A DNA stretch of 64,000 nucleotides. Origin: Alphaproteobacteria bacterium. Its GTDB lineage: Bacteria > Pseudomonadota > Alphaproteobacteria > Rs-D84. The stretch spans positions 37,967 through 101,966 of the forward strand of contig JAFVOS010000007.1 of assembly GCA_017505705.1 (NCBI GenBank). The letters run 5' to 3'. This document shows positions 8,203 through 43,578 of the stretch, piece by piece. The position numbers were made by a program, and so were the translations under genes. Positions within the stretch are counted from its first letter, which is position 1. Every line of letters starts with the position of its first letter. The notes beneath the pieces were generated by a model, which did no database searches, had not been told where the DNA came from, and worked only from the letters and a program-made list of their open reading frames with translations.

Positions 8203-11200
8203 TTAATTCCAGCGAATTTTATATGCTTGTTCTCCGGGAACGCCTGTTTCGTTGGACGGCAACACCCCATCACACGTAGCGTTGTTAACAGATGATTGCC
8301 ATTCCCATTTCTGTTCTTCTTCGTCATATATAAGCGTGCACGTCTGTTGGCCGCTGTTACGAAGGTAATATTGGGTGACGCTGTTGGGGTTTGTTGGAAC
8401 ATAGTATACGCCAGTGTCATTGTTCACCACCAGATACCGGCCACCTCCACATTCGATGTTGTCACCAGAAGCGTCAAGTGTGCCATCCAGACAAATTAAT
8501 AAGTATTGTGAATCATCTGGGTAGTAGCCAGTTTCTTCGTTGCCAGTAAATGTCATTACCAGTTGGGCGCTTTTTACTGTTGCTGGTAAACACAATTTTA
8601 ATTCATTATTTGTTTCTGCCAGATCCTGGATAGCATTTATATAGTTGCGGTCTATGGAATTATCGTAATTTTGGATTTTAATCTCATGTTTTCCATCCAT
8701 GCAGCAGTTGCCCCATGAATCCTTGAAATTGTCGCTGGTACAGCAATTGGATTCATCAGATTCTGGGGTGTCAAATGCAGTTATACTGCAGCGTCCGCCG
8801 TCAGCAGTGAACATAGATGCAGGATAGCATAGGCCATTTTCAGGATCCATTTTGTACCCAGGACCACATGATGTGTCACGACAAGAGTCTGCCATTTGGT
8901 CTGTACCGGTGTTTAGTGCAAACCAATACAACAATGTACTGTCTGAATCGTTGATTGGTTTTTTTATTTTGTTGTGTGCCAGTTCGCCCAAGACGGTTGA
9001 TGGTACAACCTCGCAGTTGCCCCAAATTTTTTCAGCAATACGACATGTTTTGCATGTAAGAGAATTATCTTCAAATCCTTGGCATTTCTCAGATTCAATA
9101 CATATGTCGTATACGCAATTTTCCTTCTTGTTACCGGGGACAAGTTCTTTTTCGCCATTTTCTGTTTCTTTCCAGGAATCTCCATTGGTAATACACTGGT
9201 CAGCATAATCGCTGTGATAGCCAGAATTTTTTATGTTTAAAACGTCGTATATATCTTTGTTGTCTGTGTAATATAATGATTTATAGAAGGAATACGCAGG
9301 AATTTCCCCATATGTTTCGTCTTGGGTGTCTGTAATTATATTACGTTTAACCAACTGGTCCATTATGTTGTTGATAGATTCGGCGCCTGCATCGGCAACG
9401 CAATCAACAACCTCTTGCCAGCATGCGGTTCTGTTAATAATAGACTTACGGTTAACGGATGTTTCAATATTTTCGCACAGCCCAAAGTTGCCAGAAATTG
9501 ATTTGCATACCTGGATGATGCAGGCACGTCCAACCTCGCGGCAGGTTTTGATAACTGTATCGTATGTTTTGTCTGTCGCAATTTCGGTCATACCACCAAT
9601 CCAGTCTGTGTCGCCGTCCGTTGCTTGAAGCAGTGCTGTGCACGCTGTTTTTACATTCGCACACATTGCATTTACAGTGACGTCTGCAATAACGCCAAAT
9701 GTAGATAACGCACGTGCGTCAAATTCTTCCAGTGTTTTTGCAGTGTTGGACATGCATTGCGTTGTAAGGGTGGTGCAACTTTGGCGGACTTCTTCCAGTT
9801 TTGCATCTTGGGCCAATTTGATTTGTGACAGGGCGTCTTCAATAAAGTCTTGCCATACATAATCAGAAATATCCTGGCAATGTTCAGTAGCGGGTTCCAG
9901 GTACTGTTTCTTGGAATTTAAGAAAGATACAAATTTTTCGTTGCCAGGCATTCCAACCCATGTTTGATTTGCAGATGGTCGGGTTATTAAATAATTTAAG
10001 TTGGCTAAATTCACTGTTAAAAATGCTTCGCCGGTTGATGGGTCAATATATTGGCCGGTTGTGTCCAGGCATTTTACCAGATTTGGTCCGCATACAGATT
10101 GGTTGGTCAGCATTTCCAACATTTTCTTTTTACATGTTAAAATATCATCGGAATTTCTGTCTTGGTATACATTCAGGCGTGATATGTCCAATAATGCGCT
10201 GTTTTCACGTACCTTGTTGCGTGCTTGATCTGCTTGGGACTGATACGATTTTTTAACGGTGTTGCAATCTTGTTCAATCTGCATTTGATAGCCGCTTTCT
10301 GCAATTGATAACTGGTCTTCGGTACAGACTTCTTGGGCCATTTCACGACATACCGGCAGGGCGGCGGCATATAATTCTGTGCCCGTTTTTAGGGTGGTTG
10401 ATGCGCCCATCAATGAATCGACGTTATCAAAGGCGGCGTCTTCGTTTAAGGATAAAGAGATTGCTGTTAAATTTCTGTCAAAAGATTCATCTTCGAACGT
10501 TTTATTAAGTTTTTTGGATATCTCGTTCAGGATGTTTTGCGAATCGGATTTGTCTTTTTTGTTAAATGCCAATTCGCCTTCGGTGGCAACATTTAGGGCG
10601 GCGGCATCTTCGGCGTTCATGCTGACTGTCAACAGGCGTTGACTGAAATCCAGCATTTTTTCTTCGGCGGTTGCCAATTGTTTTTTTACAGTGTCAAATT
10701 CGTTCAAGCGTGATGAACATGCGCAACGTTTTAATTGGCTGTCTTTGTTGGCACAAAATTCGTCCATGCATTTATAGTAAACATCACGACATTCTTTGTT
10801 GTTGGAATTCATTATCGTGTTGCGCAATTCAAGTGTTTGCAATGGTGTGGTGCCACTGCGGCCAATGGATGCACGCTGGGCAGATTCACGATTTTGGCGG
10901 ATTCCGGATGGTATGCTGCGTGTTGCAGAACGTGTAATCGTGGCAGAACGTTGCGGGGCATATGCGGATTTTGTTGCACTTGTGCCAGCGGCAACAGCCC
11001 GACTGGTGACGTTGGTGCTGGTACTGCGGGCGGAAACAGATTCGGGAACATGATTGCGTGAAGATGCCGTCCGAGACACTGTTGAAACAGATGTTCCAGA
11101 TCGTGTTGCGGTTGTGCGCTGGCGTGTGTTTTGTGGGGTTTTGTTGGAAATGTTTGTTTGGCGTGAAATGCCAGACTTTATGCCCGGTTCAGCGGGGGTG

Positions 11201-11346
11201 GGCGTTTTTTTGCGGCTGGCTGTGGTTGTGCCCGTTGTGACACGACGTACAGCGGCGCGTGCTGCGTCGGTATCATCTGTTGCGTATGCGCCGCCAAAGC
11301 CAAGCAGCACAAGGCATACAGCTAAAATCGCCTTGATTCCCTTCAT
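8203..11346 (-). CDS. large secreted Cys-rich protein of unknown function
   Basis: signal peptide (MKGIKAILAVCLVLLGFGGAYA), R/S/T/A low-complexity N-terminus, helical middle region with spaced Cys pairs, Cys-rich C-terminus. Confidence 0.75.
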   Translation of the reverse strand: MKGIKAILAVCLVLLGFGGAYATDDTDAARAAVRRVTTGTTTASRKKTPTPAEPGIKSGISRQTNISNKTPQNTRQRTTATRSGTSVSTVSRTASSRNHVPESVSARSTSTNVTSRAVAAGTSATKSAYAPQRSATITRSATRSIPSGIRQNRESAQRASIGRSGTTPLQTLELRNTIMNSNNKECRDVYYKCMDEFCANKDSQLKRCACSSRLNEFDTVKKQLATAEEKMLDFSQRLLTVSMNAEDAAALNVATEGELAFNKKDKSDSQNILNEISKKLNKTFEDESFDRNLTAISLSLNEDAAFDNVDSLMGASTTLKTGTELYAAALPVCREMAQEVCTEDQLSIAESGYQMQIEQDCNTVKKSYQSQADQARNKVRENSALLDISRLNVYQDRNSDDILTCKKKMLEMLTNQSVCGPNLVKCLDTTGQYIDPSTGEAFLTVNLANLNYLITRPSANQTWVGMPGNEKFVSFLNSKKQYLEPATEHCQDISDYVWQDFIEDALSQIKLAQDAKLEEVRQSCTTLTTQCMSNTAKTLEEFDARALSTFGVIADVTVNAMCANVKTACTALLQATDGDTDWIGGMTEIATDKTYDTVIKTCREVGRACIIQVCKSISGNFGLCENIETSVNRKSIINRTACWQEVVDCVADAGAESINNIMDQLVKRNIITDTQDETYGEIPAYSFYKSLYYTDNKDIYDVLNIKNSGYHSDYADQCITNGDSWKETENGEKELVPGNKKENCVYDICIESEKCQGFEDNSLTCKTCRIAEKIWGNCEVVPSTVLGELAHNKIKKPINDSDSTLLYWFALNTGTDQMADSCRDTSCGPGYKMDPENGLCYPASMFTADGGRCSITAFDTPESDESNCCTSDNFKDSWGNCCMDGKHEIKIQNYDNSIDRNYINAIQDLAETNNELKLCLPATVKSAQLVMTFTGNEETGYYPDDSQYLLICLDGTLDASGDNIECGGGRYLVVNNDTGVYYVPTNPNSVTQYYLRNSGQQTCTLIYDEEEQKWEWQSSVNNATCDGVLPSNETGVPGEQAYKIRWN

Positions 11347-11418
11347 CCTTATATGGGTAAGTGTAGCAAATTTAAGAAAAACCGGGCAAGTAAAATATAT
11401 TTTTTTATGCAACTAAAT

Positions 11419-16891: not shown

Positions 16892-17773
16892 CTAATAACT
16901 ATAATAACAATTTTTTGTTGGATAATAGAAACCCGTTTTATCTATATTTCCCGCTAAATAGTGTGTTGATGTACAATTTGTTGAGCAATAGCTATTACCA
17001 ACATAACATTCAGTTATAGCTGATGCACCCGTAGACGATGTGTAAACAGCAGCCGCCGTTCCATAATGAGTGTTTCCATATTGAACAAAGACAAAAGATG
17101 TGTTGGCAATTGTACCGTATGGACACGATGAACAGCTTGTTTGCCCTGTTAATGAGTTATAATAGCCTATGCTGCAGGGGGTGCAAGTGTTTCCTCCTGC
17201 TTTATATGTGCCTGCCGGACATGGCACGCATTGATTGTTAGAAGCTATTTGTCCGGTTGAACATTCCGAACATATTTGTATAAAATAGCTCAAATTGTTC
17301 ACGGTAGTTGACACCAATTTTTTAATGTAGTTAAGGTTAGCACAATTACAATCTGTGGATGCGACTATGCCAGCTGGTAATGCAACTGTTCCCATGCATG
17401 AGCCTATTGCAAGGTAGGCAGGACCTATGTTTGGATAGTCAGCAAAACCGCTAAAGGAACCACAAGTCATTCTATCCAGTGAATTGAACATGGCAACTTC
17501 AGTTTCGTTCATACAATAACATCTGTCTGAGCTAATACAACCAGAATTGCCTGCTAAATAGAATAGCAAATTATTGCCCCATTTCCCACTTACGTAGGAA
17601 TTGTTAAGAAGAATACATTGTGAGGCACATCCTGCATCAGCCAGATTCTGTGTATTGGCCATAGTATGCCAAACCAATGCACATGAAAATCTTGTATTCA
17701 TGAATATGTTTGTCATAAAACACAATCCGATTAGTAAAAACCGTTTAAATGGACTTAATTTTATGTTTTGCAC
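16892..17773 (-). CDS. secreted Cys-rich surface protein with GCC2/GCC3 (ephrin-receptor-like) repeats
   Basis: GTG start after GAGGA; signal peptide; CVPCPAGTYK...CTPCSIGYYNSLTGQTSCSSCP repeats. Confidence 0.75.
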   Translation of the reverse strand: MQNIKLSPFKRFLLIGLCFMTNIFMNTRFSCALVWHTMANTQNLADAGCASQCILLNNSYVSGKWGNNLLFYLAGNSGCISSDRCYCMNETEVAMFNSLDRMTCGSFSGFADYPNIGPAYLAIGSCMGTVALPAGIVASTDCNCANLNYIKKLVSTTVNNLSYFIQICSECSTGQIASNNQCVPCPAGTYKAGGNTCTPCSIGYYNSLTGQTSCSSCPYGTIANTSFVFVQYGNTHYGTAAAVYTSSTGASAITECYVGNSYCSTNCTSTHYLAGNIDKTGFYYPTKNCYYSY

Positions 17774-17810
17774 AGTAAATCCTCTAGCTTTTTGTTTTAA
17801 TCACACGTAT

Positions 17811-18671
17811 TTATTGATACATACAGCTGCCTGCAAAGTCATACATATGACCATTTTCAGTATAACCGATAAAGATCATAGAAGTTCCTATTTGTTGACC
17901 GGTTGTAATTGCTGCGGCATAACATTTTGTAATTGAATTCGCCCCAGTTGCTGTCAGTATTCCAAATACACAAGTTGAAAATAGACTCGTGTTGCCAGCA
18001 ACATTCGCCATACACGGCAGGCCTGGACACGGAGCACATGTTGATAGCCCCGTAGTTGATGCGTATCGTCCGGCGGGACAGGCCGTACAGGTTGATAGCC
18101 CCGTAGTTGATGCGTATCGTCCGGCGGGACAGGTCGTACAGGTTGATAGCCCCGTAGTTGATGCGTATCGTCCGGCGGGACAGACCGTACAGGTTGCCAC
18201 TGTTCCACCAGCCGAATACCGTCCAGCCGGACAGTTATAACATGCACTGCCACTCAAATACTTACCCGCTGCACAGGATGTTATTGTTGGCGTGTTACCT
18301 GTTACAGAAAACAAACACGCTACTGGTGAAAATAGTGCATAATTGCTACAATAAACCAAAAGATTTACGCTACCAGTTCTTGCAAGGGTCAACATGGACG
18401 CTTCTGTTGCGGAAAAACAATAACAAGCGCTTTGAATAAAGGAAACAGCACCACAGCTTACATTGGGCCAAGTTAACATTGATGTACCAGATACTACGTT
18501 TGGTGCATTTACAGCAGCGCAAATGCTTGCACACACAGTATACATAGATTGATCAGATAGCCCAATGGCATAGGCACCATACGATATTTTTGTGCCCATA
18601 CATACATTAGATATCAGTACTAATGCAAACATTAATAACCGCTTAAATGGACTTAATTTTATGTTTTTCAT
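17811..18671 (-). CDS. secreted Cys-rich surface protein with GCC2/GCC3-like repeats (paralog of 16892-17773)
   Basis: signal peptide MKNIKLSPFKRLLMFALVLIS; CPAGRYASTTGLSTC repeats. Confidence 0.8.
   Translation of the reverse strand: MKNIKLSPFKRLLMFALVLISNVCMGTKISYGAYAIGLSDQSMYTVCASICAAVNAPNVVSGTSMLTWPNVSCGAVSFIQSACYCFSATEASMLTLARTGSVNLLVYCSNYALFSPVACLFSVTGNTPTITSCAAGKYLSGSACYNCPAGRYSAGGTVATCTVCPAGRYASTTGLSTCTTCPAGRYASTTGLSTCTACPAGRYASTTGLSTCAPCPGLPCMANVAGNTSLFSTCVFGILTATGANSITKCYAAAITTGQQIGTSMIFIGYTENGHMYDFAGSCMYQ
18040..18192. repeat. intragenic tandem repeat, 3 x 51 bp (17 aa)
   Basis: units at 18040-18090, 18091-18141 and 18142-18192 are identical except within one codon (GCC/ACC/GTC on the coding strand). 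Confidence 0.95.
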
Positions 18672-18688
18672 TTCTCTTTCCCCTATGC

Positions 18689-18787
18689 AAAACGGTGGTT
18701 TAGATTCGGCGGTTTTTGATGCTTGACAGTGCTAGAAATCCTGTGTTAAAATCATGGCAAGTGGTACAGAATCTAAACCACCGTTTT
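18689..18787. promoter_or_regulatory. candidate invertible promoter: 19-bp inverted repeats flanking a sigma70 promoter
   Basis: aaaacggtggtttagattc (18689-18707) / gaatctaaaccaccgtttt (18769-18787); inside: TTGACA (18723-28), 18-bp spacer, TGnTAAAAT (-10 at 18747-52) on + strand, pointing away from the gene starting at 18671. Confidence 0.8.
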
Positions 18788-18883
18788 TTTTAGGCAGCTA
18801 AAATTGCAAATTTATTTACTGTTTTCAATATAGTATTTCGTAAATATAGATTTTTATGATTTAAAAAATATTTGTGTCGGTGA

Positions 18884-21265
18884 TTATTTTATAATATTGA
18901 ATTTATGTGATGTGCCGGTGCCAGTATCGGTGGAAATGCGAATGGTGTGGGTGCCAATTGATACAGGCTGGACGTGGGTTTCGCCCGGTTTTGTTCGGGC
19001 TATCATTTTATCATCCAGAAACCAAAAAATTTTATCGTCTGGGTTCTGAGTAATGGCCATAAATGATATTTGTGCCTGGTTGGCGTCTGATACGATTACG
19101 TGATTTGTGCCGTCTGATGGTGATATTATCAGGGGTGCCGATGTGTTCGCAGAAATGTCATCTAATTCACAGCCCGGCATAAATGGGGGTGGGGTGTTGC
19201 GTTCAATTCCCGCACGTTTGAACATGTCCAGATATTCTGCATCCCAAAATTCATAAACCACCATGTGGGTGTTTTTAGGATCGGCGTTGCATGCACGACG
19301 CCCAGTGGCATTATCAATGGGAACTGCACGATAAACCGGTGATGTGTTAATTGGTGATACGCCCGGGATAAAATACGCAGATACAGATTTTGGACAATGG
19401 GGGCCTGCGATGCCACCAACATCGGCACACATTTCAACGGTTGCAATATTTAAATCATCATGCATAAAATTGTTGTCTTTTGTTGGTATGTCGTGCTGTC
19501 TGTTGTATTCCAGTATGCTGTCAGCCAGGCTGAAATATATTGGGGCGGCTGTTTTTGCGCCGCTGAATGCATTGTTCGGTGCGCCGTCAAAATTACCAAC
19601 CCATACAATTAATACATAGTCGCCAAATATGCCAGCTGTCCATGCGTCACGATATGACGATGATGTGCCCGTTTTCCAATAGTGGGTTATACGCTGTGGT
19701 GTGTGTTTGGCATATGGAATCTTTTTGTCGGGGGAATATTGACGGGCCAGCATATCCAATGTCATAAAGAATGATTCTGGTGATAAGATGTGACCTGTTA
19801 TTTCATCGGGGGCAGATGTGCGCATTTTTATGCTGCGACGTGTGCCCAGATTCGCCATCGTGGCATAAATGTCAGCCAGTTCGTACATGGAAACTTCGGC
19901 ACCACCCAGTGCAATAGATATGCCGTAATGTGATGGTGGTTTCAGGTTGCTGACCCCGGAATCTGACAGTGTTTTATAGAATTTGTTCAGACCAATCTGA
20001 CGAACCAGATTAATCGCAGGAATGTTTCTGGAATGGGTCAGGGCATCACGTGCCAATACGGGACCATAAAATTCACTGTCTGAATTTTCAGGGGCGTATA
20101 CACCAAAATTTATTCGTGCATCTTTTAGCAGCGTCATCGAATGTATGTGGCCGTCTGCAATTGCAGATGCGTATATCAGGGGTTTAAGGGTGGAACCTGG
20201 ACTGCGTCGGGCGATGACGCCGTCATTTTGCCCCAGGATGGATTCATCAAAATAATTTACAGATCCAATATATGATAAAACCTGCATGGTTTTGTAATTT
20301 ATCAGTATTGCAGAGGCATTCTTAACCCCCATGTGTTTGCGGATGGAAACCTGGTGGCGAAGCGTGCGTTCCAGATGATTGTGTAAATCCAAATCCAGCG
20401 TAGTGGTAATTATCGAATCGGGTTGTTGCGGGACAGATTTGTCGTGTGTAATCTGGCGGTCTGTGAAATGGGGGGCGTGAAACGGTAAATCACTGAAACC
20501 GTATACAGACAGGGGCATTTGAACCATTGTGGATAAATTTGAGTCGTCTGGATATTTAGATAGCCAACGGCGTACCAAATCGTTTCGCATTTTTGCCATG
20601 GTGGTCATGCCATGTGACGTGTTCAGACCACGTTTGGTGGGATTCTGGGGAATTGTTGCCAGGGTTATTGACTGAATTGTTGATAAATCTTGTGCAGGAC
20701 GATGAAAATAAATTGTTGATGCGGCACCGATGCCTTCTATATTGCCACCATATGGGGCTAAATTTAGGTATGCTTCGATAATTTCTTGCTTGGAATAAAA
20801 AGCGTCAATATAAATTGCTGCGGCAATCTGTTCCAGTTTTCCGGGGATTGTTTTGGTGTTTATGTTGTATTTTATACGTGCTAACTGCATCGTTATGGTC
20901 GATGCGCCGGCGGTGTCTGTATTGCCGGATATATAGTTGCGTGTGGCACGAAACAGGGCAACGGGATTGATGCCTGGGTGTGCGTAAAAATATTTATCTT
21001 CGTATAAAATAGTTGCGCGAATGATGTCTGGTGGAATTTGATTATATGGCGTGAATATTCGATATTTTTCATCAGCAGATAATGTCAGGCGCAATAATTG
21101 GCCATTTCTGTCGTAATAGGCACGTGAAAAATATGTGTCTGATAATAAATGTGGGGTAAAAAATAGGCGAATGAATATGTATACAATAACTATTGCCAAG
21201 CAAAAAAGCCAAAATCGTGGAAGACGTTTTAATGTTTGTTTTAAATTTTTGGGATTTTTATTCAT
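18884..21265 (-). CDS. pbpC: penicillin-binding protein 1C
   Basis: transglycosylase (EDKYF, GASTITMQLAR), SPGSTLKP, KTGTS; directly downstream of alpha-2-macroglobulin. Confidence 0.92.
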   Translation of the reverse strand: MNKNPKNLKQTLKRLPRFWLFCLAIVIVYIFIRLFFTPHLLSDTYFSRAYYDRNGQLLRLTLSADEKYRIFTPYNQIPPDIIRATILYEDKYFYAHPGINPVALFRATRNYISGNTDTAGASTITMQLARIKYNINTKTIPGKLEQIAAAIYIDAFYSKQEIIEAYLNLAPYGGNIEGIGAASTIYFHRPAQDLSTIQSITLATIPQNPTKRGLNTSHGMTTMAKMRNDLVRRWLSKYPDDSNLSTMVQMPLSVYGFSDLPFHAPHFTDRQITHDKSVPQQPDSIITTTLDLDLHNHLERTLRHQVSIRKHMGVKNASAILINYKTMQVLSYIGSVNYFDESILGQNDGVIARRSPGSTLKPLIYASAIADGHIHSMTLLKDARINFGVYAPENSDSEFYGPVLARDALTHSRNIPAINLVRQIGLNKFYKTLSDSGVSNLKPPSHYGISIALGGAEVSMYELADIYATMANLGTRRSIKMRTSAPDEITGHILSPESFFMTLDMLARQYSPDKKIPYAKHTPQRITHYWKTGTSSSYRDAWTAGIFGDYVLIVWVGNFDGAPNNAFSGAKTAAPIYFSLADSILEYNRQHDIPTKDNNFMHDDLNIATVEMCADVGGIAGPHCPKSVSAYFIPGVSPINTSPVYRAVPIDNATGRRACNADPKNTHMVVYEFWDAEYLDMFKRAGIERNTPPPFMPGCELDDISANTSAPLIISPSDGTNHVIVSDANQAQISFMAITQNPDDKIFWFLDDKMIARTKPGETHVQPVSIGTHTIRISTDTGTGTSHKFNIIK

Positions 21266-24200
21266 TAACTTGACTTAATACACTGAATGTTTTGGATGTT
21301 GGTGTTTTCGTTGCGGTTATGTCTGGATTATACATAGATGTTGCATTGATTGCAGGTATGGCAAAGGTGCCTGCGGCAGTTATCTGGGCGGTGTATGTAA
21401 ATTCGGATGTGTCACGTGTTAAATCTGTGTAAATTATTACACGATCTTCACGTATTTCAGAAAATGTTTGCGGGCCAATAACGTCTTCGGCAACAAAGCC
21501 ACCGGGCAACAAATCAGTAATGGCAATGTCAGGCAGATAGTTTGTGCCACGTGCGCGGGCACTGATTTTTACAGTCACAATGTCGCCCAGTTTGGCGGAT
21601 GCAATTCTGTTGCCGTTTTCATCATAATATGTGCGAGAAATTTCAATGCCATTGGATTCGTCTGATGCGGTGGTGGCAAATCCTTGGGTGACCAGGGCGT
21701 AATATAGTGGGGTGTCGTGTGTACAAGACAAGCATTCTAAATCCAATGTTTCGGCAGGTGTTGGTACCTGGGCAATTAGGATGTTGGATTCATTATGGGT
21801 ATCCAATGGGGCGTCGTTGTATAATATTTTTACAGATGATGGAGCAGAATTGCCTGTTGCCGCCCCATTTAACCCCATTACAATTTTTGCAGATGTAAAG
21901 GCATCGTAATTTCCACGATTGATATAACCAGTGATGGCATTGCCAGTATAGGTGATTGGGGTGTTAAACAATGTGTTTAATATGTACAGATATGTCGCAT
22001 CGTCGGATACATTGTTTGAATATGCAGACATATATTTAAAGCTACTGTGTTTTGACAGTTTATATTGCTGGATTAATTCTTGGGCCCGGTCAGATTGGCG
22101 CATAATTTGGAAACTGGCCCCGATATATACCCCAGAAATTTCTGATTCCCAGTGGCTGATGTTTTTATCAGCGTATTCTTGGAATTTGTCGATATAACTG
22201 GTTGTGACATATCCGTTTGTGGTCAGTACATATATCGCATATGCAATTGCGTGTGCGTGTTCAGGGGTAGTAATTGTCGTGCCTGCAAATTCACGCAGAA
22301 AATCAATGGCGCGTCCCAACATTGTGTCTGGTACGCTGAAACCGTTTTGACGGGCCATGGATAAAAAGTGAACGACATATGCAGTCAATTCAGCGTTGCC
22401 TTTGTCGGTTGAATGGGTGGTACTGGTTGGCCACAGGGCAAATGAACCGTCTGGGTTTTGGCGGTTCTTTAATGTGTTTATTGTGTCGCCAATTTTCTTG
22501 GACGATACGTTATAGTTTGTGCCCAAAATTGTGTTGTCTGGCAACAGGACATATGGAATTGCCTTGGAAACCAGTTGTTCTGTACACGTAAAATCATATT
22601 TTGACAGATATTCAAACAGGGGCTTGATTAATATTGCAGGCGTTTGAGATATGTACAGGGTTTGGGTTGCGTGTTCTGGATACATATCAATATGAAAGCG
22701 TTTAATCGTTTCGTGCTTTTTATTTATGATGTCTGTTTTTATGTGGGTTTCAAATGGGGTCGCTGGACGCACTGATATTGATGATGTCATTGAACGATTA
22801 ATCAGGGCCAAACCGTTATCATTAACAGCACTGGCATTAATCGTTATTTCTGATGCACCAGGTGTGTTTTCTGTTTGAGCGTGGAATATGAACAGGTGAT
22901 CATCTCCATTTTGAATATGATTTTCCATTTGTGCACCAGATGTTATTTTTATGTTATCTGATGTGACAATGTCTGTTTGAATGTTGATGCCATCACTGAT
23001 GTCTGTAAGATTCGCAATCAGTGCATTTATCTCAAATGTGTCCCCGGGGGCAACAAATGTTGGATTGGATACAGATATAACCAGTGGACTTTGTACAGTG
23101 GTTTCAATTTCAGATGCGCCAGCTGCAACGTCATTTGTTATAATTGCATAGATTCTTAATGTGCCATTAAAGTTATCTGGTACGTCAAATGTTATATTGT
23201 TTTTTGTGTTGGCTGTGACATCAATAATACCTGAGTAAAACGCCACAGGTGATAATATGCGACGTGCAAATGGATTCGATAATGGAGACGATAATTCTGT
23301 GTCGGGTGCATCGAAATCACCACCACCTGTTTTGGCAAATTCGCGCAGTATTTTATATTCTGGCAACAGTAATGATAATATCTGAAATGTTTCAACCTGA
23401 AGCGCAGATTTTGCAAAGAAATATTTTAAAGGATTGGGCGTTTTAAAGCGTGCAACCTGTAAAATTCCTTCGTCTATGGCGAACAGCATCATGCGACCAG
23501 ATTGGCTGGATTCGTATTCAATGTTTAATTTGTTGTCACGAATGATTTTTGGTGCATTCAGTGTGACGTCAATCGTTCTGGATTTTATATCAGTGCTGAA
23601 TGGGGCAACAGCGTATGTGTATGGTGATGTGAATATGTCACGTGAATCTATGCTGCGAATAAATGATACGTTTATATATCCAGTGCCTTCAAAATCAGCG
23701 GGCAGTTTGATTTTTTGGACAGAAGATGTTTGGTCTGCCTTAAACCATTTATATGCGTATACATTATCCCTTTCGATTGTAATCAGACCATGACCGGGGT
23801 ATGGGGTGGTTATATTTATCTGTATTTCATCCCCAGGAGTGTATGTTTCTGAATTTAGGGTTATTTCCATTTCGGAACTTTGTATGGTATTCAGTTCTGG
23901 GTTATCATCGCCGGCAACAAAGTATTCGATGTTTGAGATAACCTTGTCAGCGGCATCCAGTATTTGAACAAAGTATGTGCCAGGTTTTTCTGTTATCAAT
24001 GGAATAGATGCACCAGTCGTTGCAAGTGTGATTTTTTCTTGGGATACGACAGTGTCACGATTTGTTGTTTGATATTTATAAAAATTATTATAGTCCTTGA
24101 TAAGGCTGGTCAATTTATCACGATGCACAAAACGTACGGTCAAATCATTTACTGCAATTGGTGCGGATGTGTGATCCAGTGCAATAAAATCAATTTCATG

Positions 24201-26996
24201 CCCACTGTTGCGATTAATGTATTTTAAGTTAGTGTTTGTGTGGTGGCCAATCAAATATTTAGCATTTGAACAACGTGAAGTTATGGTTGTTTGTACGGAT
24301 TTGCCTGAATTTGGCTCAAATCCATTAATTGTTGCGGTTAATAGGTATGTTCCGTTTGGAATAGGGGTGTCAAATCTTATGTCTGCGTGGACAAAGCCAT
24401 TGCTGTCGGTATATATGTTGTCGATTGTTTTGACATATGTTTGGTTGTTGATTGGACTGCTGGATGACATGGGGGTGTCGTTGGTCGCATCAATTACAAA
24501 GTTGTATTGTGAAAGATTGTCAAATTTGAATTCTAATGGACGCAATGTTGCACGAATGCTGACCCGGCGATTGGATGCAGGGGTGCCAAATAAATTGCGC
24601 AAATCAATGTCGGTGCTGATTGTATTTGGGAAAATCCATCCTTGGCTGATTGCGCCGTTAATTACAGCGTTTATTTTCATTGTGTCTGGTGAAAATTCAG
24701 CAACGCTAAATGTGGTGGTGCCAAGCAAATCTTGGGGGGTGGCACGAACGTTCAAAGAATAAACGTTGACACTGTATTCGCCAATGGCGGCAGATGCAGA
24801 AATTGGAACCTGGATATCAAACATGCCGTCTGAGTGAAGCGATATGTTCTTTTCAAATATTATGCGCCCCCTGGGGTCTGTGACGCTGACTTTTACGGGG
24901 ACCCCTTCGGGTGATTTAAATGATTTGTTTTTTACAATTGCACCAATAATTGCCGTTTCCCCTGGGCGATATATGCCACGATCTGAAAATAAAAATGCTT
25001 TTAATGGAACGTCGGTATATGAATATTGGCCACCGGTATCAAATTTAGAGTATTGGACATGTTGAGAATGGGCTGCATCATATGGAATAAATGATACATC
25101 ATCATTTAATCTGGCGACAATTGCCACAGGTGCGCGCGCGTTTTTGTATTCGTTCCATGGCAGGGCAGGTATGTCTGCACGACCATTGGTATCAGTGCGA
25201 CCAGACCATATGGGGTTGCCATTGCGTCCCAAAACATTTATTTGGGCATCTGGTACAGGACCACCATTGGAAAGCTTGGACACAAACAGGGCAGATGTGC
25301 CATCTGTGTTCAGCTTTCTAATTATTCCCAGGTCTGTCACCACGACAAGACGTTTGTCGTTGAATTCAGCGTCATTTTCTGATGTGCCGGCCTGGATAAT
25401 AAAAATACCCGTTTTATCATTGGAAACACGATCCATATAGTCGCCCAAATCAAGTGAAGCATAATTTGTTTCAATTGCGTTTGATACATTCAGTGGAATC
25501 CGCTTTTCAAATACGACAGACATGTCATATGTTCCAAAAGACCATGACTTAAATTCTATGTCAGAAGCAAATACATTATATGTTTGTGATATTAAATGAT
25601 TTATTTCAGATGATTTGATTTTGTATAATTTTATATATGCATCGTGTACACCACCACGTGTCATAATCCCCAGCTTCTTTTCACCAGACATCGATAATAA
25701 TGCCCCAGAACCTGCGATTTTAACCGATTGTTCTGGATAGGAAACAGGAACAACGGTATTCAAACCGTTTTTCATTGTAAAGTCACCAACTGATTTTGCG
25801 CCCGGTGTTATGTCAATGTACAAATATCTGGGACTGGGATTAGGAATGTTGTATGCAAATGCATATTGGTTAACGCCCACTGGGGTGACAAAGTCAGATA
25901 GAGATAGCTTTATTTTTTTTGAATTCAGTAATACTTCTGGGGTTATTTCGTCGCTTTGCCATATATGGTTGTTGTCCGATGTAGAGTTGTCTTTGTATTG
26001 TGGCAACAGGTATGCGTTAATATGTTGTTTCCAGTCTGTTTTGCCAGCGGCTGGTGCGCTGGTTTGTATCAGTATTAATTGACGTGCATTGTTTTCGGAA
26101 TCGTCTGCGACAATCGATTCCAGTGAAGTAATGCGGAAAAAATTATCCTGGGCATTGATTATTGTACTGCCAGTTATTTTTTCTGTGTCAGAATGACCGT
26201 ACATTGCAGATACACGATTAAGTTTTAGACGCAGATCCTGTTCTTGGTCAATGACAGAAATTGGTTCAGATATAACAAAGGCAGTTCTATGAAAACGGTC
26301 AAATTTAATGTCGAATTTTATTTTTTTACCATCCAGACGCATTGATACCTTGTCTGCAAAATGTTCTGTGTTTATGGGGTAATTAAAAGATAAAATCGCA
26401 ACGCCAATCAGTTTTTTGGGATTGTCGGGTGATGGGTATGTGTTAAAGGAATCCAGCGTGGCAGCAATTTTCTTGGTTGAAAATGTCGCAGAATAACGGT
26501 CTGGGTGAACGTCCTTTGAAAACAGACGTTTGGATATCCTGACTGTGTATTTTGTGTCGGCAGGCCATGGCGCATCCGGGGTAAATGTGATTGTATATGG
26601 GTTTTTGATTGAGAATTTACCATGAACCAATGGGCTTATTTTTACATATTTTGCCAGGTCTGAATCATCAAGGTTTATATTAAATGCAGGATTGTATGGG
26701 CCAGACAGCCAATTGTATGAAATTTCAATGTGTTGTGCATTGGTCAGTGTTCTGTTGTTATTAATATCTGGTGTTGATGCAGATGATATAAATACCTGAT
26801 TATTATTGTCGGTAAATGTTATCGGTGACGGCTGGCTTATGTGCAGGCGCAGTTCCGTTTTTTCTGATTGATTAAGGCCAAGTGACAGAAACAGTGCACC
26901 AGCAACAATTCCAATAACAAAAATTATCGCCAAACAGGGCCATAAATATCGGCGAAATACAGACTTTTTATGTGCTGTTTTTTTTGTGCGTGTCAT
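21258..26996 (-). CDS. bacterial alpha-2-macroglobulin
   Basis: FSDRGIYRPGE, AIDEGILQV, thioester motif CTEQ, DLLPGGF, REDRV; paired with pbpC. Confidence 0.92.
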   Translation of the reverse strand: MTRTKKTAHKKSVFRRYLWPCLAIIFVIGIVAGALFLSLGLNQSEKTELRLHISQPSPITFTDNNNQVFISSASTPDINNNRTLTNAQHIEISYNWLSGPYNPAFNINLDDSDLAKYVKISPLVHGKFSIKNPYTITFTPDAPWPADTKYTVRISKRLFSKDVHPDRYSATFSTKKIAATLDSFNTYPSPDNPKKLIGVAILSFNYPINTEHFADKVSMRLDGKKIKFDIKFDRFHRTAFVISEPISVIDQEQDLRLKLNRVSAMYGHSDTEKITGSTIINAQDNFFRITSLESIVADDSENNARQLILIQTSAPAAGKTDWKQHINAYLLPQYKDNSTSDNNHIWQSDEITPEVLLNSKKIKLSLSDFVTPVGVNQYAFAYNIPNPSPRYLYIDITPGAKSVGDFTMKNGLNTVVPVSYPEQSVKIAGSGALLSMSGEKKLGIMTRGGVHDAYIKLYKIKSSEINHLISQTYNVFASDIEFKSWSFGTYDMSVVFEKRIPLNVSNAIETNYASLDLGDYMDRVSNDKTGIFIIQAGTSENDAEFNDKRLVVVTDLGIIRKLNTDGTSALFVSKLSNGGPVPDAQINVLGRNGNPIWSGRTDTNGRADIPALPWNEYKNARAPVAIVARLNDDVSFIPYDAAHSQHVQYSKFDTGGQYSYTDVPLKAFLFSDRGIYRPGETAIIGAIVKNKSFKSPEGVPVKVSVTDPRGRIIFEKNISLHSDGMFDIQVPISASAAIGEYSVNVYSLNVRATPQDLLGTTTFSVAEFSPDTMKINAVINGAISQGWIFPNTISTDIDLRNLFGTPASNRRVSIRATLRPLEFKFDNLSQYNFVIDATNDTPMSSSSPINNQTYVKTIDNIYTDSNGFVHADIRFDTPIPNGTYLLTATINGFEPNSGKSVQTTITSRCSNAKYLIGHHTNTNLKYINRNSGHEIDFIALDHTSAPIAVNDLTVRFVHRDKLTSLIKDYNNFYKYQTTNRDTVVSQEKITLATTGASIPLITEKPGTYFVQILDAADKVISNIEYFVAGDDNPELNTIQSSEMEITLNSETYTPGDEIQINITTPYPGHGLITIERDNVYAYKWFKADQTSSVQKIKLPADFEGTGYINVSFIRSIDSRDIFTSPYTYAVAPFSTDIKSRTIDVTLNAPKIIRDNKLNIEYESSQSGRMMLFAIDEGILQVARFKTPNPLKYFFAKSALQVETFQILSLLLPEYKILREFAKTGGGDFDAPDTELSSPLSNPFARRILSPVAFYSGIIDVTANTKNNITFDVPDNFNGTLRIYAIITNDVAAGASEIETTVQSPLVISVSNPTFVAPGDTFEINALIANLTDISDGINIQTDIVTSDNIKITSGAQMENHIQNGDDHLFIFHAQTENTPGASEITINASAVNDNGLALINRSMTSSISVRPATPFETHIKTDIINKKHETIKRFHIDMYPEHATQTLYISQTPAILIKPLFEYLSKYDFTCTEQLVSKAIPYVLLPDNTILGTNYNVSSKKIGDTINTLKNRQNPDGSFALWPTSTTHSTDKGNAELTAYVVHFLSMARQNGFSVPDTMLGRAIDFLREFAGTTITTPEHAHAIAYAIYVLTTNGYVTTSYIDKFQEYADKNISHWESEISGVYIGASFQIMRQSDRAQELIQQYKLSKHSSFKYMSAYSNNVSDDATYLYILNTLFNTPITYTGNAITGYINRGNYDAFTSAKIVMGLNGAATGNSAPSSVKILYNDAPLDTHNESNILIAQVPTPAETLDLECLSCTHDTPLYYALVTQGFATTASDESNGIEISRTYYDENGNRIASAKLGDIVTVKISARARGTNYLPDIAITDLLPGGFVAEDVIGPQTFSEIREDRVIIYTDLTRDTSEFTYTAQITAAGTFAIPAINATSMYNPDITATKTPTSKTFSVLSQVNE

Positions 26997-27165
26997 TGAT
27001 TCCCTTCCTGGCATACAAGTATTTATTTTAAATGCATATTTTCAAAAGACAAGTTTTTTATTTTATTTGTGGCATATACATATTTGAATGCGTGGATTTT
27101 AGAATATTGGCCATAAACCGGGGGTTGAGAGAGTTTTTACTGTCACAACCCAAAAGGAGTATATT

Positions 27166-27789
27166 GTGGTATATGGCTATATTCGTGTTTCTACGGATCA
27201 TCAAACAACAGAAAACCAGCGTTTCGAAATAAAGAAATTCTGCGAAAAACAAGATTTGTCCGTTGACGTATGGATAGAAGAAACGATTTCTGCAACCAAA
27301 GATTTAAATAAGCGAAAATTAGGGCGTCTGATAAAAAGAATACAAAAAGACGATCTGATTATTGCGTCCGAATTGTCACGACTGGGGCGTAATTTGCTGC
27401 AAATCATGAGTATTTTGCACCATTGTATGGATATTGGGGCAAAAATTTGGACGATTAAGGATAACTATCGTTTGGGGGCAGATATTACCAGTAAAGTATT
27501 GGCGTTTGCATTTGGTTTGTCTGCGGAAATTGAAAGAAATTTGATATCCCAACGAACAAAAGAAGCACTGGCCCGCGTCAAAGCCGAAGGCAAGATGATT
27601 GGGCGACCAAAAGGCAGTGCTAATTTGTCTAAACTGGAAGGACGTGAAAAATATATTCTGCAACGTTTGACGGATGGGCGCAGCAAAAGTGAAATCGCAC
27701 GACGGCTGCATGTGCATCGTGATACGCTGAACAGTTTTATTACGCACAAGGGTATTATGTCTGATGGAATCGAGGTAATTGAAATTTAA
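27166..27789 (+). CDS. serine recombinase, Mpi-family master DNA invertase-like
   Basis: YGYIRVST catalytic Ser, ENQRFEI, ELSRLGRN, WTIKDNYRLG, SKVLAFAFGLSAEIERNLISQRTKEAL (recognised as Bacteroides Mpi-like from memory), C-terminal HTH; RBS AAGGAG. Confidence 0.85.
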   Translation: MVYGYIRVSTDHQTTENQRFEIKKFCEKQDLSVDVWIEETISATKDLNKRKLGRLIKRIQKDDLIIASELSRLGRNLLQIMSILHHCMDIGAKIWTIKDNYRLGADITSKVLAFAFGLSAEIERNLISQRTKEALARVKAEGKMIGRPKGSANLSKLEGREKYILQRLTDGRSKSEIARRLHVHRDTLNSFITHKGIMSDGIEVIEI

Positions 27790-43407: not shown

Positions 43408-43436
43408 TTGCTAAAATCGTCGCAATGCATTAGAAT
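43408..43436 (+). promoter_or_regulatory. sigma70-type promoter upstream of invertible segment
   Basis: TTGCTA (43408-13), 17-bp spacer, TAGAAT (43431-36). Confidence 0.55.
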
Positions 43437-43461
43437 ACATGGCATAGACAGGAAAAATACC

Positions 43462-43578
43462 TGCCTAAAATAAAGGGACGTTTAGAATCTCCCTTTTTAT
43501 TTTTATAAAATTCCCAGATTTCTGCATATTTTTCTCCCTTAATTATTGCCTAAAACAAACGTCGGGTTTTTATCGGCA
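43462..43578. promoter_or_regulatory. candidate invertible segment carrying RBS, ATG and signal-peptide n-region
   Basis: sites tgcctaaaataaagg[GA]cgtttagaatct and tgcctaaaacaaacg[TC]gggtttttatcggca; 7-bp IR gacgttt (43477-83) / aaacgtc (43557-63); minus strand inside reads aagggag-aaaaat-ATG CAG AAA... Confidence 0.75.

Follow-up and report, generated by a model that had tools for sequence, protein, structure and literature searches.

The question raised by this locus is whether a short promoter segment in front of two cysteine-rich protein genes of an uncultured alphaproteobacterium can be turned round and, if so, by which enzyme. The locus lies in a stretch of 64,000 nucleotides of Alphaproteobacteria bacterium (GTDB lineage Rs-D84; assembly GCA_017505705.1, contig JAFVOS010000007.1, positions 37,967 to 101,966 of the forward strand), hereafter called the window, and all coordinates refer to it unless another contig is named. 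An earlier examination of the letters of this stretch, the sequence-only reading, had proposed an ON/OFF invertible promoter for the gene pair running from 18671 to 16892. To judge from its sequence, the element at 18689-18787 is very probably a very small invertible promoter (inverton) that was assembled in the OFF orientation, and we hold with much the same confidence that this copy still switches. The earlier proposal is thus supported by comparison with related modules, the flip of the target copy itself being unseen. The enzyme that turns the segment is most likely the Mpi-family invertase encoded at 27166-27789.

The two arms of the element (18689-18707 on the plus strand and 18769-18787 on the minus strand) are 19 bp each, contain no mismatch and enclose 61 bp; they lengthen to 26 nt if 88% complementarity is accepted. 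With up to three mismatches allowed, the 19-mer was found only at these two places in the window, against a chance expectation of 0.03, and two or more matches arose in one of 100 shuffles. The enclosed DNA carries a sigma-70-type promoter on the plus strand that agrees with the consensus at 11 of 12 positions (-35 TTGACA at 18723-18728, a spacer of 18 nt, TG at 18744-18745 and -10 TAAAAT at 18747-18752), and both hexamers are conserved across the alignment of five paralogous modules. As assembled, it is directed away from the cysteine-rich genes, the first of which has its ATG at 18671-18669, 18 bp beyond the left arm, preceded by the ribosome-binding region ggggaaagagaa (18672-18683, minus strand) just outside that arm. 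The repeats, the promoter and its direction relative to the gene start had all been described in the sequence-only reading, and each was verified with its coordinates. The same reading saw no convincing promoter on the minus strand. This holds for strong ones, since the target promoter is the sole strong promoter-like site in a scan of 18300-19300, but a weak minus-strand site with 9 of 12 consensus positions is present at 18911-18883.

Around the arms, two putative recombination sites can be delimited. The gene-proximal site (18681-18710) consists of an outer half-site (18681-18693), the asymmetric core GGTG (18694-18697) and the inner half-site GTTTAGATTCGGC (18698-18710). The distal site (18766-18795) is made up of an inner half-site (18766-18778), the core CACC (18779-18782) and an outer half-site (18783-18795) composed of a T-run and AGGC, and the T-run with its TTAGGCA flank recurs distally in the paralogous modules. 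From core centre to core centre, the segment predicted to invert spans 85 bp (18696-18780).

The mechanism that we propose would start from two sites of about 30 bp, each with two A/T-rich half-sites ending in AAAC and GTTT around an asymmetric 4-bp core, in inverted orientation and with their centres 85 bp apart. A recombinase would bind both sites, cut in the cores and rejoin the ends with the 85-bp segment reversed. In the OFF state, TTGACA-18-TAAAAT would fire toward the 3' end of the neighbouring gene pbpC and into a run of eight T residues; in the ON state, transcription would pass a leader of about 50 nt before reaching the ribosome-binding site and the ATG at 18671, so that both secreted proteins with Ephrin-receptor-like repeats would be expressed. 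When the target was inverted in silico, the first 60 nt contained at most a run of four T residues, as had been claimed, and the distance from the -10 element to the ATG became 52 nt, compared with 72 nt at a paralogue assembled in the ON orientation and 66 nt at a metagenome locus described below. The sequence-only reading had further let the OFF transcript run into a gtggt..accac hairpin followed by T8. The sequences are indeed present downstream of the promoter (gtggt at 18762-18766, accac at 18778-18782, T8 at 18784-18791), but the hairpin, with -5 kcal/mol and a z score of 0.19, folds no better than shuffled sequences, of which 108 of 200 fold equally well or better. We therefore dropped it as an OFF-state terminator, and the difference between T8 and T4 alone remains.

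The strongest evidence that such segments turn comes from public metagenome contigs. A 21-mer of the target's left site occurs there at seven loci, six of which (L077-L082) represent one locus with two divergent signal-peptide genes whose start codons are 197 bp apart. When L077 and L078 were each compared with L080, L081 and L082, 62 bp at either end agreed completely and the 73 bp between them were the exact reverse complement, in six of six comparisons; L079 is oriented as L077 and was not taken as a reference given one base change in its suffix, so that three contigs (L077-L079) show one orientation and three (L080-L082) the other. Core, inner half-site (GTTTAGATTCGGC), site spacing (85 bp) and TTGACA position of this module agree with those of the target. 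Its flanking genes are collinear and 82-91% identical across orientations and up to 94% within one, which indicates that the contigs represent different strains, and its repeat of only 12-13 bp is too short for a flip made by the assembly. Moreover, A-runs of unequal length stay with their own flanks, placing the crossover inside the CGGTGG centre; we infer for the target, too, a crossover at the centre of the core. The promoter at L077-L082 serves one or the other of the divergent genes, and this locus is thus a toggle and not an on/off switch.

Further support is given by the source genome itself (962,633 bp in 12 contigs, 96.8% complete), in which copies were located by an arm search followed by a module profile search. 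Twelve modules were found on seven contigs, six of the promoter type, including the target, and six of a second type that holds a start codon; common to them are the AAAC-N4-GTTT sites, the T-run/AGGCA flank and site centres 85-86 bp apart. Every one of the 12 adjoins a cysteine-rich open reading frame (ORF; 6.8-10.9% Cys) on exactly one side. Modules of the promoter type share a layout in which a gene-side site AAAC-GGTG-GTTT..ATTCGGC is followed by TTGACA, 17-18 nt and a -10 element ending in TAAAAT, and then by the distal site, the T-run and TTAGGCA. Four sister modules of this type have diverged distal arms; a hairpin and a T-run just past the distal site are seen in four sister modules. 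Among the promoter modules, the target has the longest perfect repeat, together with an intact promoter and intact genes. A paralogue on another contig (C4 26556-26668) has the T-run/AGGCA flank on the -35 side, versus the -10 side in the target and four other copies, while its other flank, ..TTTAnATTGG.., stands on the gene side and is homologous to the flanks of the remaining promoter modules. Its inner segment is reversed, and its promoter faces a 406-aa cysteine-rich gene 72 nt downstream, which corresponds to the ON state. Eleven of the modules are off in the assembly and one is on, and a population could on this basis vary which cysteine-rich surface proteins are displayed.

In the start-codon type, the segment does not carry a promoter but a ribosome-binding site, an ATG and the codons for the basic N-terminal residues of a signal peptide, the adjoining cysteine-rich ORF is open up to the site without a start of its own, and a fixed promoter-like site beyond the module faces the ORF. 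Inversion in silico joined the ATG in frame in six of six such modules and gave ORFs of 135-354 aa. One of them lies in the window (43409-43572, plus strand). Its fixed promoter (TTGCTA 43409-43414, 17 nt, TAGAAT 43432-43437) is followed by the distal site at about 43462-43489 and the gene-side site at 43547-43572, with the cysteine-rich ORF without its own start running from about 43560 on the plus strand. The ribosome-binding site and the ATG of the 85-bp cassette (about 43527-43525) are on the minus strand and face away from the ORF. As assembled, a hairpin and a T-run stand between the fixed promoter and the ORF; in the inverted state, a 135-aa ORF led by the ATG is obtained in frame. A relative of the same genus (G017) has perfect palindromic sites, with 13-bp half-sites identical to GTTTAGATTCGGC around GGTG/CACC, in inverted pairs 84-85 bp apart. 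Two of its start-codon cassettes continue in frame, as assembled, into ORFs of 193 and 133 aa, and another two reach a stop after 22 aa.

One contig of G017 ends within a module. In other relatives, contigs likewise have one of their ends no more than about 200 bp from a module (G115:C6:30, G088:C15:116, G006:C12:100, G006:C15:61, G069:C5:176, G055:C17:188, G126:C8:15 and L039), which is what mixed orientations in a sampled population would cause in assembly. Two loci, contig C4 at about 11050-11112 and L037 (G017:C12), have a single, unpaired site beside a cysteine-rich gene and may have arisen from such switches by locking or deletion.

With regard to the enzyme, the plus-strand gene at 27166-27789, 8.4 kb from the target, encodes a 207-aa protein of the Mpi-family master DNA invertases. 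It matches PF00239 over residues 2-143 (E 6.9e-32), has C-terminal helix-turn-helix matches at 159-195 and scores 310.7 bits against the NCBIfam equivalog NF009949 (cut-off 272, E 4.2e-93); its best solved relative is the Gin invertase (E 1e-14), ahead of gamma-delta and Tn3 resolvases. No other small serine recombinase is encoded in the genome, which also contains two large PF00239 serine recombinases and six PF00589 tyrosine recombinases. Relatives with 78-87% identity occur in uncultured gut Alphaproteobacteria including Candidatus Enterousia, and those with 62-68% in Bacteroidales, Treponema and others. The gene stands beside a pair formed by pbpC and an alpha-2-macroglobulin-sized gene, and this position, at a distance of about 8 kb from the pbpC end, is kept in 26 genus genomes, so that the invertase looks like a resident chromosomal gene and not like part of a mobile element.

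The presence of the enzyme goes along with that of the sites. A strict pattern was defined as AAAC-N4-GTTT, 72-74 nt and again AAAC-N4-GTTT, with the backwards pattern as control. It was found in 31 of 120 genus genomes, and the control in none of 121. Among the 41 of these 120 genomes that have a close invertase orthologue (at least 76% identity), 26 contain a strict site pair and 15 do not, compared with five with and 74 without among the 79 genomes that have no close orthologue. Of these five, three have sites with other cores (CAAC, GAAC) and also encode more distant Mpi-family paralogues, one is probably a chance match and one (G056) has good sites. Genomes with more distant Mpi-family paralogues (47-66% identity) have other 4-bp cores, namely CAAC, CTAG, CAAG and GAAC.

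In the source genome, all four strict pairs whose cores are reverse-complementary have a spacing of exactly 85 bp, and no such pair was found at other distances from 40 to 199 bp. Across 121 genomes, gaps of 72-74 nt gave 94 matches in 32 genomes and no match for the backwards control, gaps of 75-104 nt gave 61 in 25 genomes (control 36) and gaps of 42-71 nt gave 26 in 17 genomes (control 28). In the range of 75-104 nt, the multi-copy families that are site-like, by our own judgement of the listed matches, have spacings of 106-109 bp (for example 11 in G007, 14 in G090 and six in G055), and four matches have 96-97 bp. In the range of 42-71 nt, 17 of the 26 matches are at the upper edge, with a total length of 94-95 and a spacing of 82-83 bp; given this and the higher control, a separate class below about 82 bp was dropped. 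Spacings in the genus therefore cluster near 85, 96 and 107 bp (classes 82-86, 96-97 and 106-109), about one helical turn apart, the genomes behind these clusters and the other cores being G007, G090, G055, G059, G104, G084 and G003. Steps of one turn suggest that the two sites need the same rotational orientation on a very tight loop, and thus that a synapse would need them on a fixed face of strongly bent DNA.

At three places (G022:C20:7738-7915, G059:C1:71731-71942 and G059:C1:284345-284556), two modules have a common middle site, resulting in three sites in a row. By analogy, such rows could permit nested or alternative inversions, like a small shufflon.

Several observations weigh against an active switch that is operated by this invertase. 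The target's outer half-sites are degenerate (8 of 13 and 9 of 13 positions of the G017 consensus), although those of the metagenome locus seen in both orientations are about as degenerate. The target's inner 34-mer had no match in the metagenome contigs. No orthologous locus was present in the species searched, which makes a cross-species comparison of the target locus impossible. The weak minus-strand site and possible read-through from pbpC mean that the OFF state may be leaky. A loop of 85 bp falls far short of the length of the invertible segments known for the studied serine invertases, and the mechanism would be physically demanding. As for the link with the enzyme, there are the 15 genomes that have a close orthologue without the strict pattern, and no recombinase was found in G056 (92% complete) by an Mpi-family search at E 1e-40 or better. 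In addition, genomes of the same genus are not independent, so that the co-occurrence counts overstate the support.

The last of these points bear on the rival that survives best, namely that the element is a real inverton turned by one of the six tyrosine or two large serine recombinases, the Mpi-family gene serving other sites. The good sites of G056 would fit this rival, and the core could alternatively be taken for the 6-bp overlap (CGGTGG) of a tyrosine recombinase site. The six PF00589 genes are on contigs C2, C8, C9 and C12 and none is on the window's contig, C5, where a switch of the tyrosine type would have a linked recombinase gene; two are of XerC/D size and the others were judged integrase-like by length only. 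The Mpi-family gene is the sole small serine recombinase and the sole member here of the master DNA invertase family, its close orthologues accompany the sites as counted above, and its distant paralogues accompany sites with other cores. The half-site ending in ..TCTAAAC, which we take to resemble those of hix and gix, likewise speaks for an enzyme of this kind. We consider another enzyme improbable, and it would leave the identity of the element as an inverton unchanged.

Slightly less probable still is that the target is a relic, that is a former inverton locked OFF or a pseudo-switch, whose genes are silent or expressed only through read-through from pbpC. The assembly with 11 of 12 modules OFF is also compatible with decayed copies, and the diverged distal arms of the four sister modules, together with the single-site locus at C4 ~11050, tell us that decay occurs in the family. 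Moreover, the target was OFF in four of four sequencing runs (X1, X3, X4 and X6), with one contig each spanning it without differences; three of the runs are possibly the source sample itself, and X6 comes from a more distant strain. No strand-changing joint was seen at 17800-19800 in the assembled contigs of these runs, which drop minority variants and are thus a weak test of inversion, showing OFF as the majority form and nothing more. The single joint that goes back 868 positions in the run contigs results from the similar N-termini of the two paralogous genes and not from inversion. Set against decay, the target repeat is the best preserved among the promoter-type copies of the genome (19 of 19), its cores are identical and its inner half-site is that of active-looking sites, while the promoter, both genes, which are open and of full length, and the invertase gene are intact.

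That the repeats merely form an RNA hairpin (a terminator, attenuator or stabiliser) in a read-through transcript from pbpC to the gene, with the outward promoter making a short divergent RNA, is very improbable: the minus-strand arms do give a 19-bp stem (-37 kcal/mol, z -3.97) followed by U4, T8 lies within about 40 nt of the plus-strand promoter and a hairpin with a T-run follows the distal site in four sisters, but any inverted repeat folds in this way, a loop of 61 nt is unusual for a terminator, the small plus-strand hairpin is weak, Rfam gave no family at threshold for the target (sole match 19.8 bits against a gathering score of 109), and the flipped paralogue, the exact reverse complement at L077-L082, the in-frame start-codon cassettes, the fixed 85-bp spacing and the link to the invertase would all go unexplained.

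An invertible promoter of this kind is already known as the Mpi type, as in Bacteroides, and the element works alike. PMC4747536 and PMC10403206 describe the inversion of 13 regions by Mpi of Bacteroides fragilis, seven of which are polysaccharide promoters. Here as there, a small serine recombinase of NF009949 is encoded away from its targets in a gut bacterium, and many dispersed promoter segments with short inverted repeats stand upstream of genes for surface structures. We found an enzyme of this family, a promoter on a repeat-bounded segment upstream of a gene, dispersed loci with one repeat consensus, and both orientations at a locus with the same site type (L077-L079 versus L080-L082; C4 26556-26668). 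In contrast to B. fragilis, the host is an alphaproteobacterium with a reduced genome, the targets are single cysteine-rich protein genes and not polysaccharide operons, and the part that is turned in half of the modules is a start codon rather than a promoter. The Bacteroides segments are about 170-220 bp long and have the repeat consensus ARACGTWCGT. The target departs from both with AAAC-GGTG-GTTT and a spacing of 85 bp, whereas the AAAC-GTTC-GTTT sites of the relatives G055 and G085 would fit this consensus.

The resemblance to Hin, Gin, Cin and Pin concerns the enzyme, which has about 200 aa and belongs to the serine recombinases with a helix-turn-helix at the C-terminus, and the sites, in which a short asymmetric centre is framed by two inverted half-sites; a half-site that ends in ..AAAC resembles those of hix and gix. 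These invertases turn about 1-4 kb, have their gene in or beside the segment and need a cis enhancer and Fis. Here, the segment has 85 bp, the gene is 8.4 kb off and the similarity to Gin is distant.

Among tyrosine recombinase systems, the vpma genes of Mycoplasma agalactiae and the vsa genes of Mycoplasma pulmonis have the recombination site in the 5' part of the gene, so that different gene bodies can be connected to one expression site; in Mycoplasma penetrans, the invertible mpl promoter segments have about 135 bp. Our start-codon modules resemble the arrangement with a site in the 5' part of the gene. They differ in that entire genes are brought to one common expression site in vpma and vsa, while here each gene has an 85-bp cassette of its own. 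Site-specific inversion in the Mycoplasma surface-lipoprotein switches is covered in PMC2268961. What these switches have in common with the system described here is a host-associated bacterium with a reduced genome and many paralogous surface-protein genes, each switched by inversion, but the recombinases there are tyrosine recombinases. The same enzyme class (FimB/E, RecV), with one or few loci per genome, distinguishes fimS of E. coli and cwpV/flgB from the target, which they resemble as short repeat-flanked ON/OFF segments upstream of a surface-structure gene. Segments of fimS and cwpV/flgB have about 150-310 bp, and we know of no studied inverton as short as about 85 bp. For cwpV of Clostridioides difficile, termination is involved in the OFF state according to PMC2784873.

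New in comparison with the literature that we found are the host lineage, the 85-bp size, the spacing classes, the start-codon/signal-peptide cassettes and the cysteine-rich targets. No publication on inversion in Rs-D84 was found, although the supplementary tables of large inverton surveys may list such elements; one survey names the Mpi family/master DNA invertase as enriched beside predicted inversions, and the main text of an Enterousia genome paper (mSphere 2025) does not mention inversion, phase variation or a recombinase. The wider interpretation, for which we see an even balance of chances, would be that an Mpi-family invertase flips segments of about 85 bp, which is considerably less than the persistence length of DNA, at a dozen loci in each genome of 1 Mb and in discrete spacing classes, with the same sites flipping either a promoter or a start-codon/signal-peptide cassette, the recombination site itself being translated in the latter case, and that these switches together provide VSP-like antigenic variation of cysteine-rich surface proteins in an uncultured symbiont. 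If so, a programme of surface variation would be under the control of the Mpi family in a gut lineage of uncultured Alphaproteobacteria whose genome is smaller than 1 Mb. About a dozen switches are a large investment for such a genome, which argues for a strong pressure by host immunity or phages on the cysteine-rich surface proteins. The small size and the spacing classes also bear on synapsis by serine invertases, namely on how so short a loop closes and whether an enhancer or a bending protein is needed, and the start-codon cassettes would represent a second mode, in which translation rather than transcription is flipped at the same sites. Furthermore, repeat-based finders may miss short invertons with short or degenerate repeats, and AAAC-N4-GTTT with a fixed spacing offers a simple search model for metagenomes.

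Both controlled genes are on the minus strand. The first (17811-18671) encodes a secreted cysteine-rich protein of 286 aa with four stretches matching PF07699, Ephrin_rec_like (E 4.7e-15), and the second (16892-17773) a 293-aa cysteine-rich paralogue with a match to the same family (E 1.2e-7), in agreement with the sequence-only reading, which had called both cysteine-rich. The second begins 37 bp downstream of the first, this gap contains no module, and the two genes probably share one operon. We infer that the products are surface antigens. Inside the first gene, at 18069-18183, there are tandem CPAGRYASTTGLSTC-type repeats at which the public contigs of all four runs break, and the number of repeat copies may vary between cells or strains. 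Elsewhere in the window, the minus-strand gene at 8203-11412 encodes a cysteine-rich protein of 1069 aa with a long N-terminal region rich in Ser, Thr and Arg and no significant Pfam match (best E 0.0027). No module was noticed beside this gene, whose product is a further candidate for a surface protein.

On the minus strand, the order of genes around the target is the alpha-2-macroglobulin-sized gene (21258-27014), pbpC (18884-21265, with Transgly, Transpeptidase and BiPBP_C domains), the module and the two cysteine-rich genes. A search with the C-terminal part of pbpC matched 55 of 120 genus genomes, and none of the 29 downstream regions examined contains the target genes or the module; in most of the examined relatives, a convergent gene follows directly after pbpC. 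At the 3' side of pbpC in three relatives (L069, L070 and L075, from G089, G077 and G091), a conserved non-coding region of about 300 nt with paired-looking segments precedes a small signal-peptide gene.

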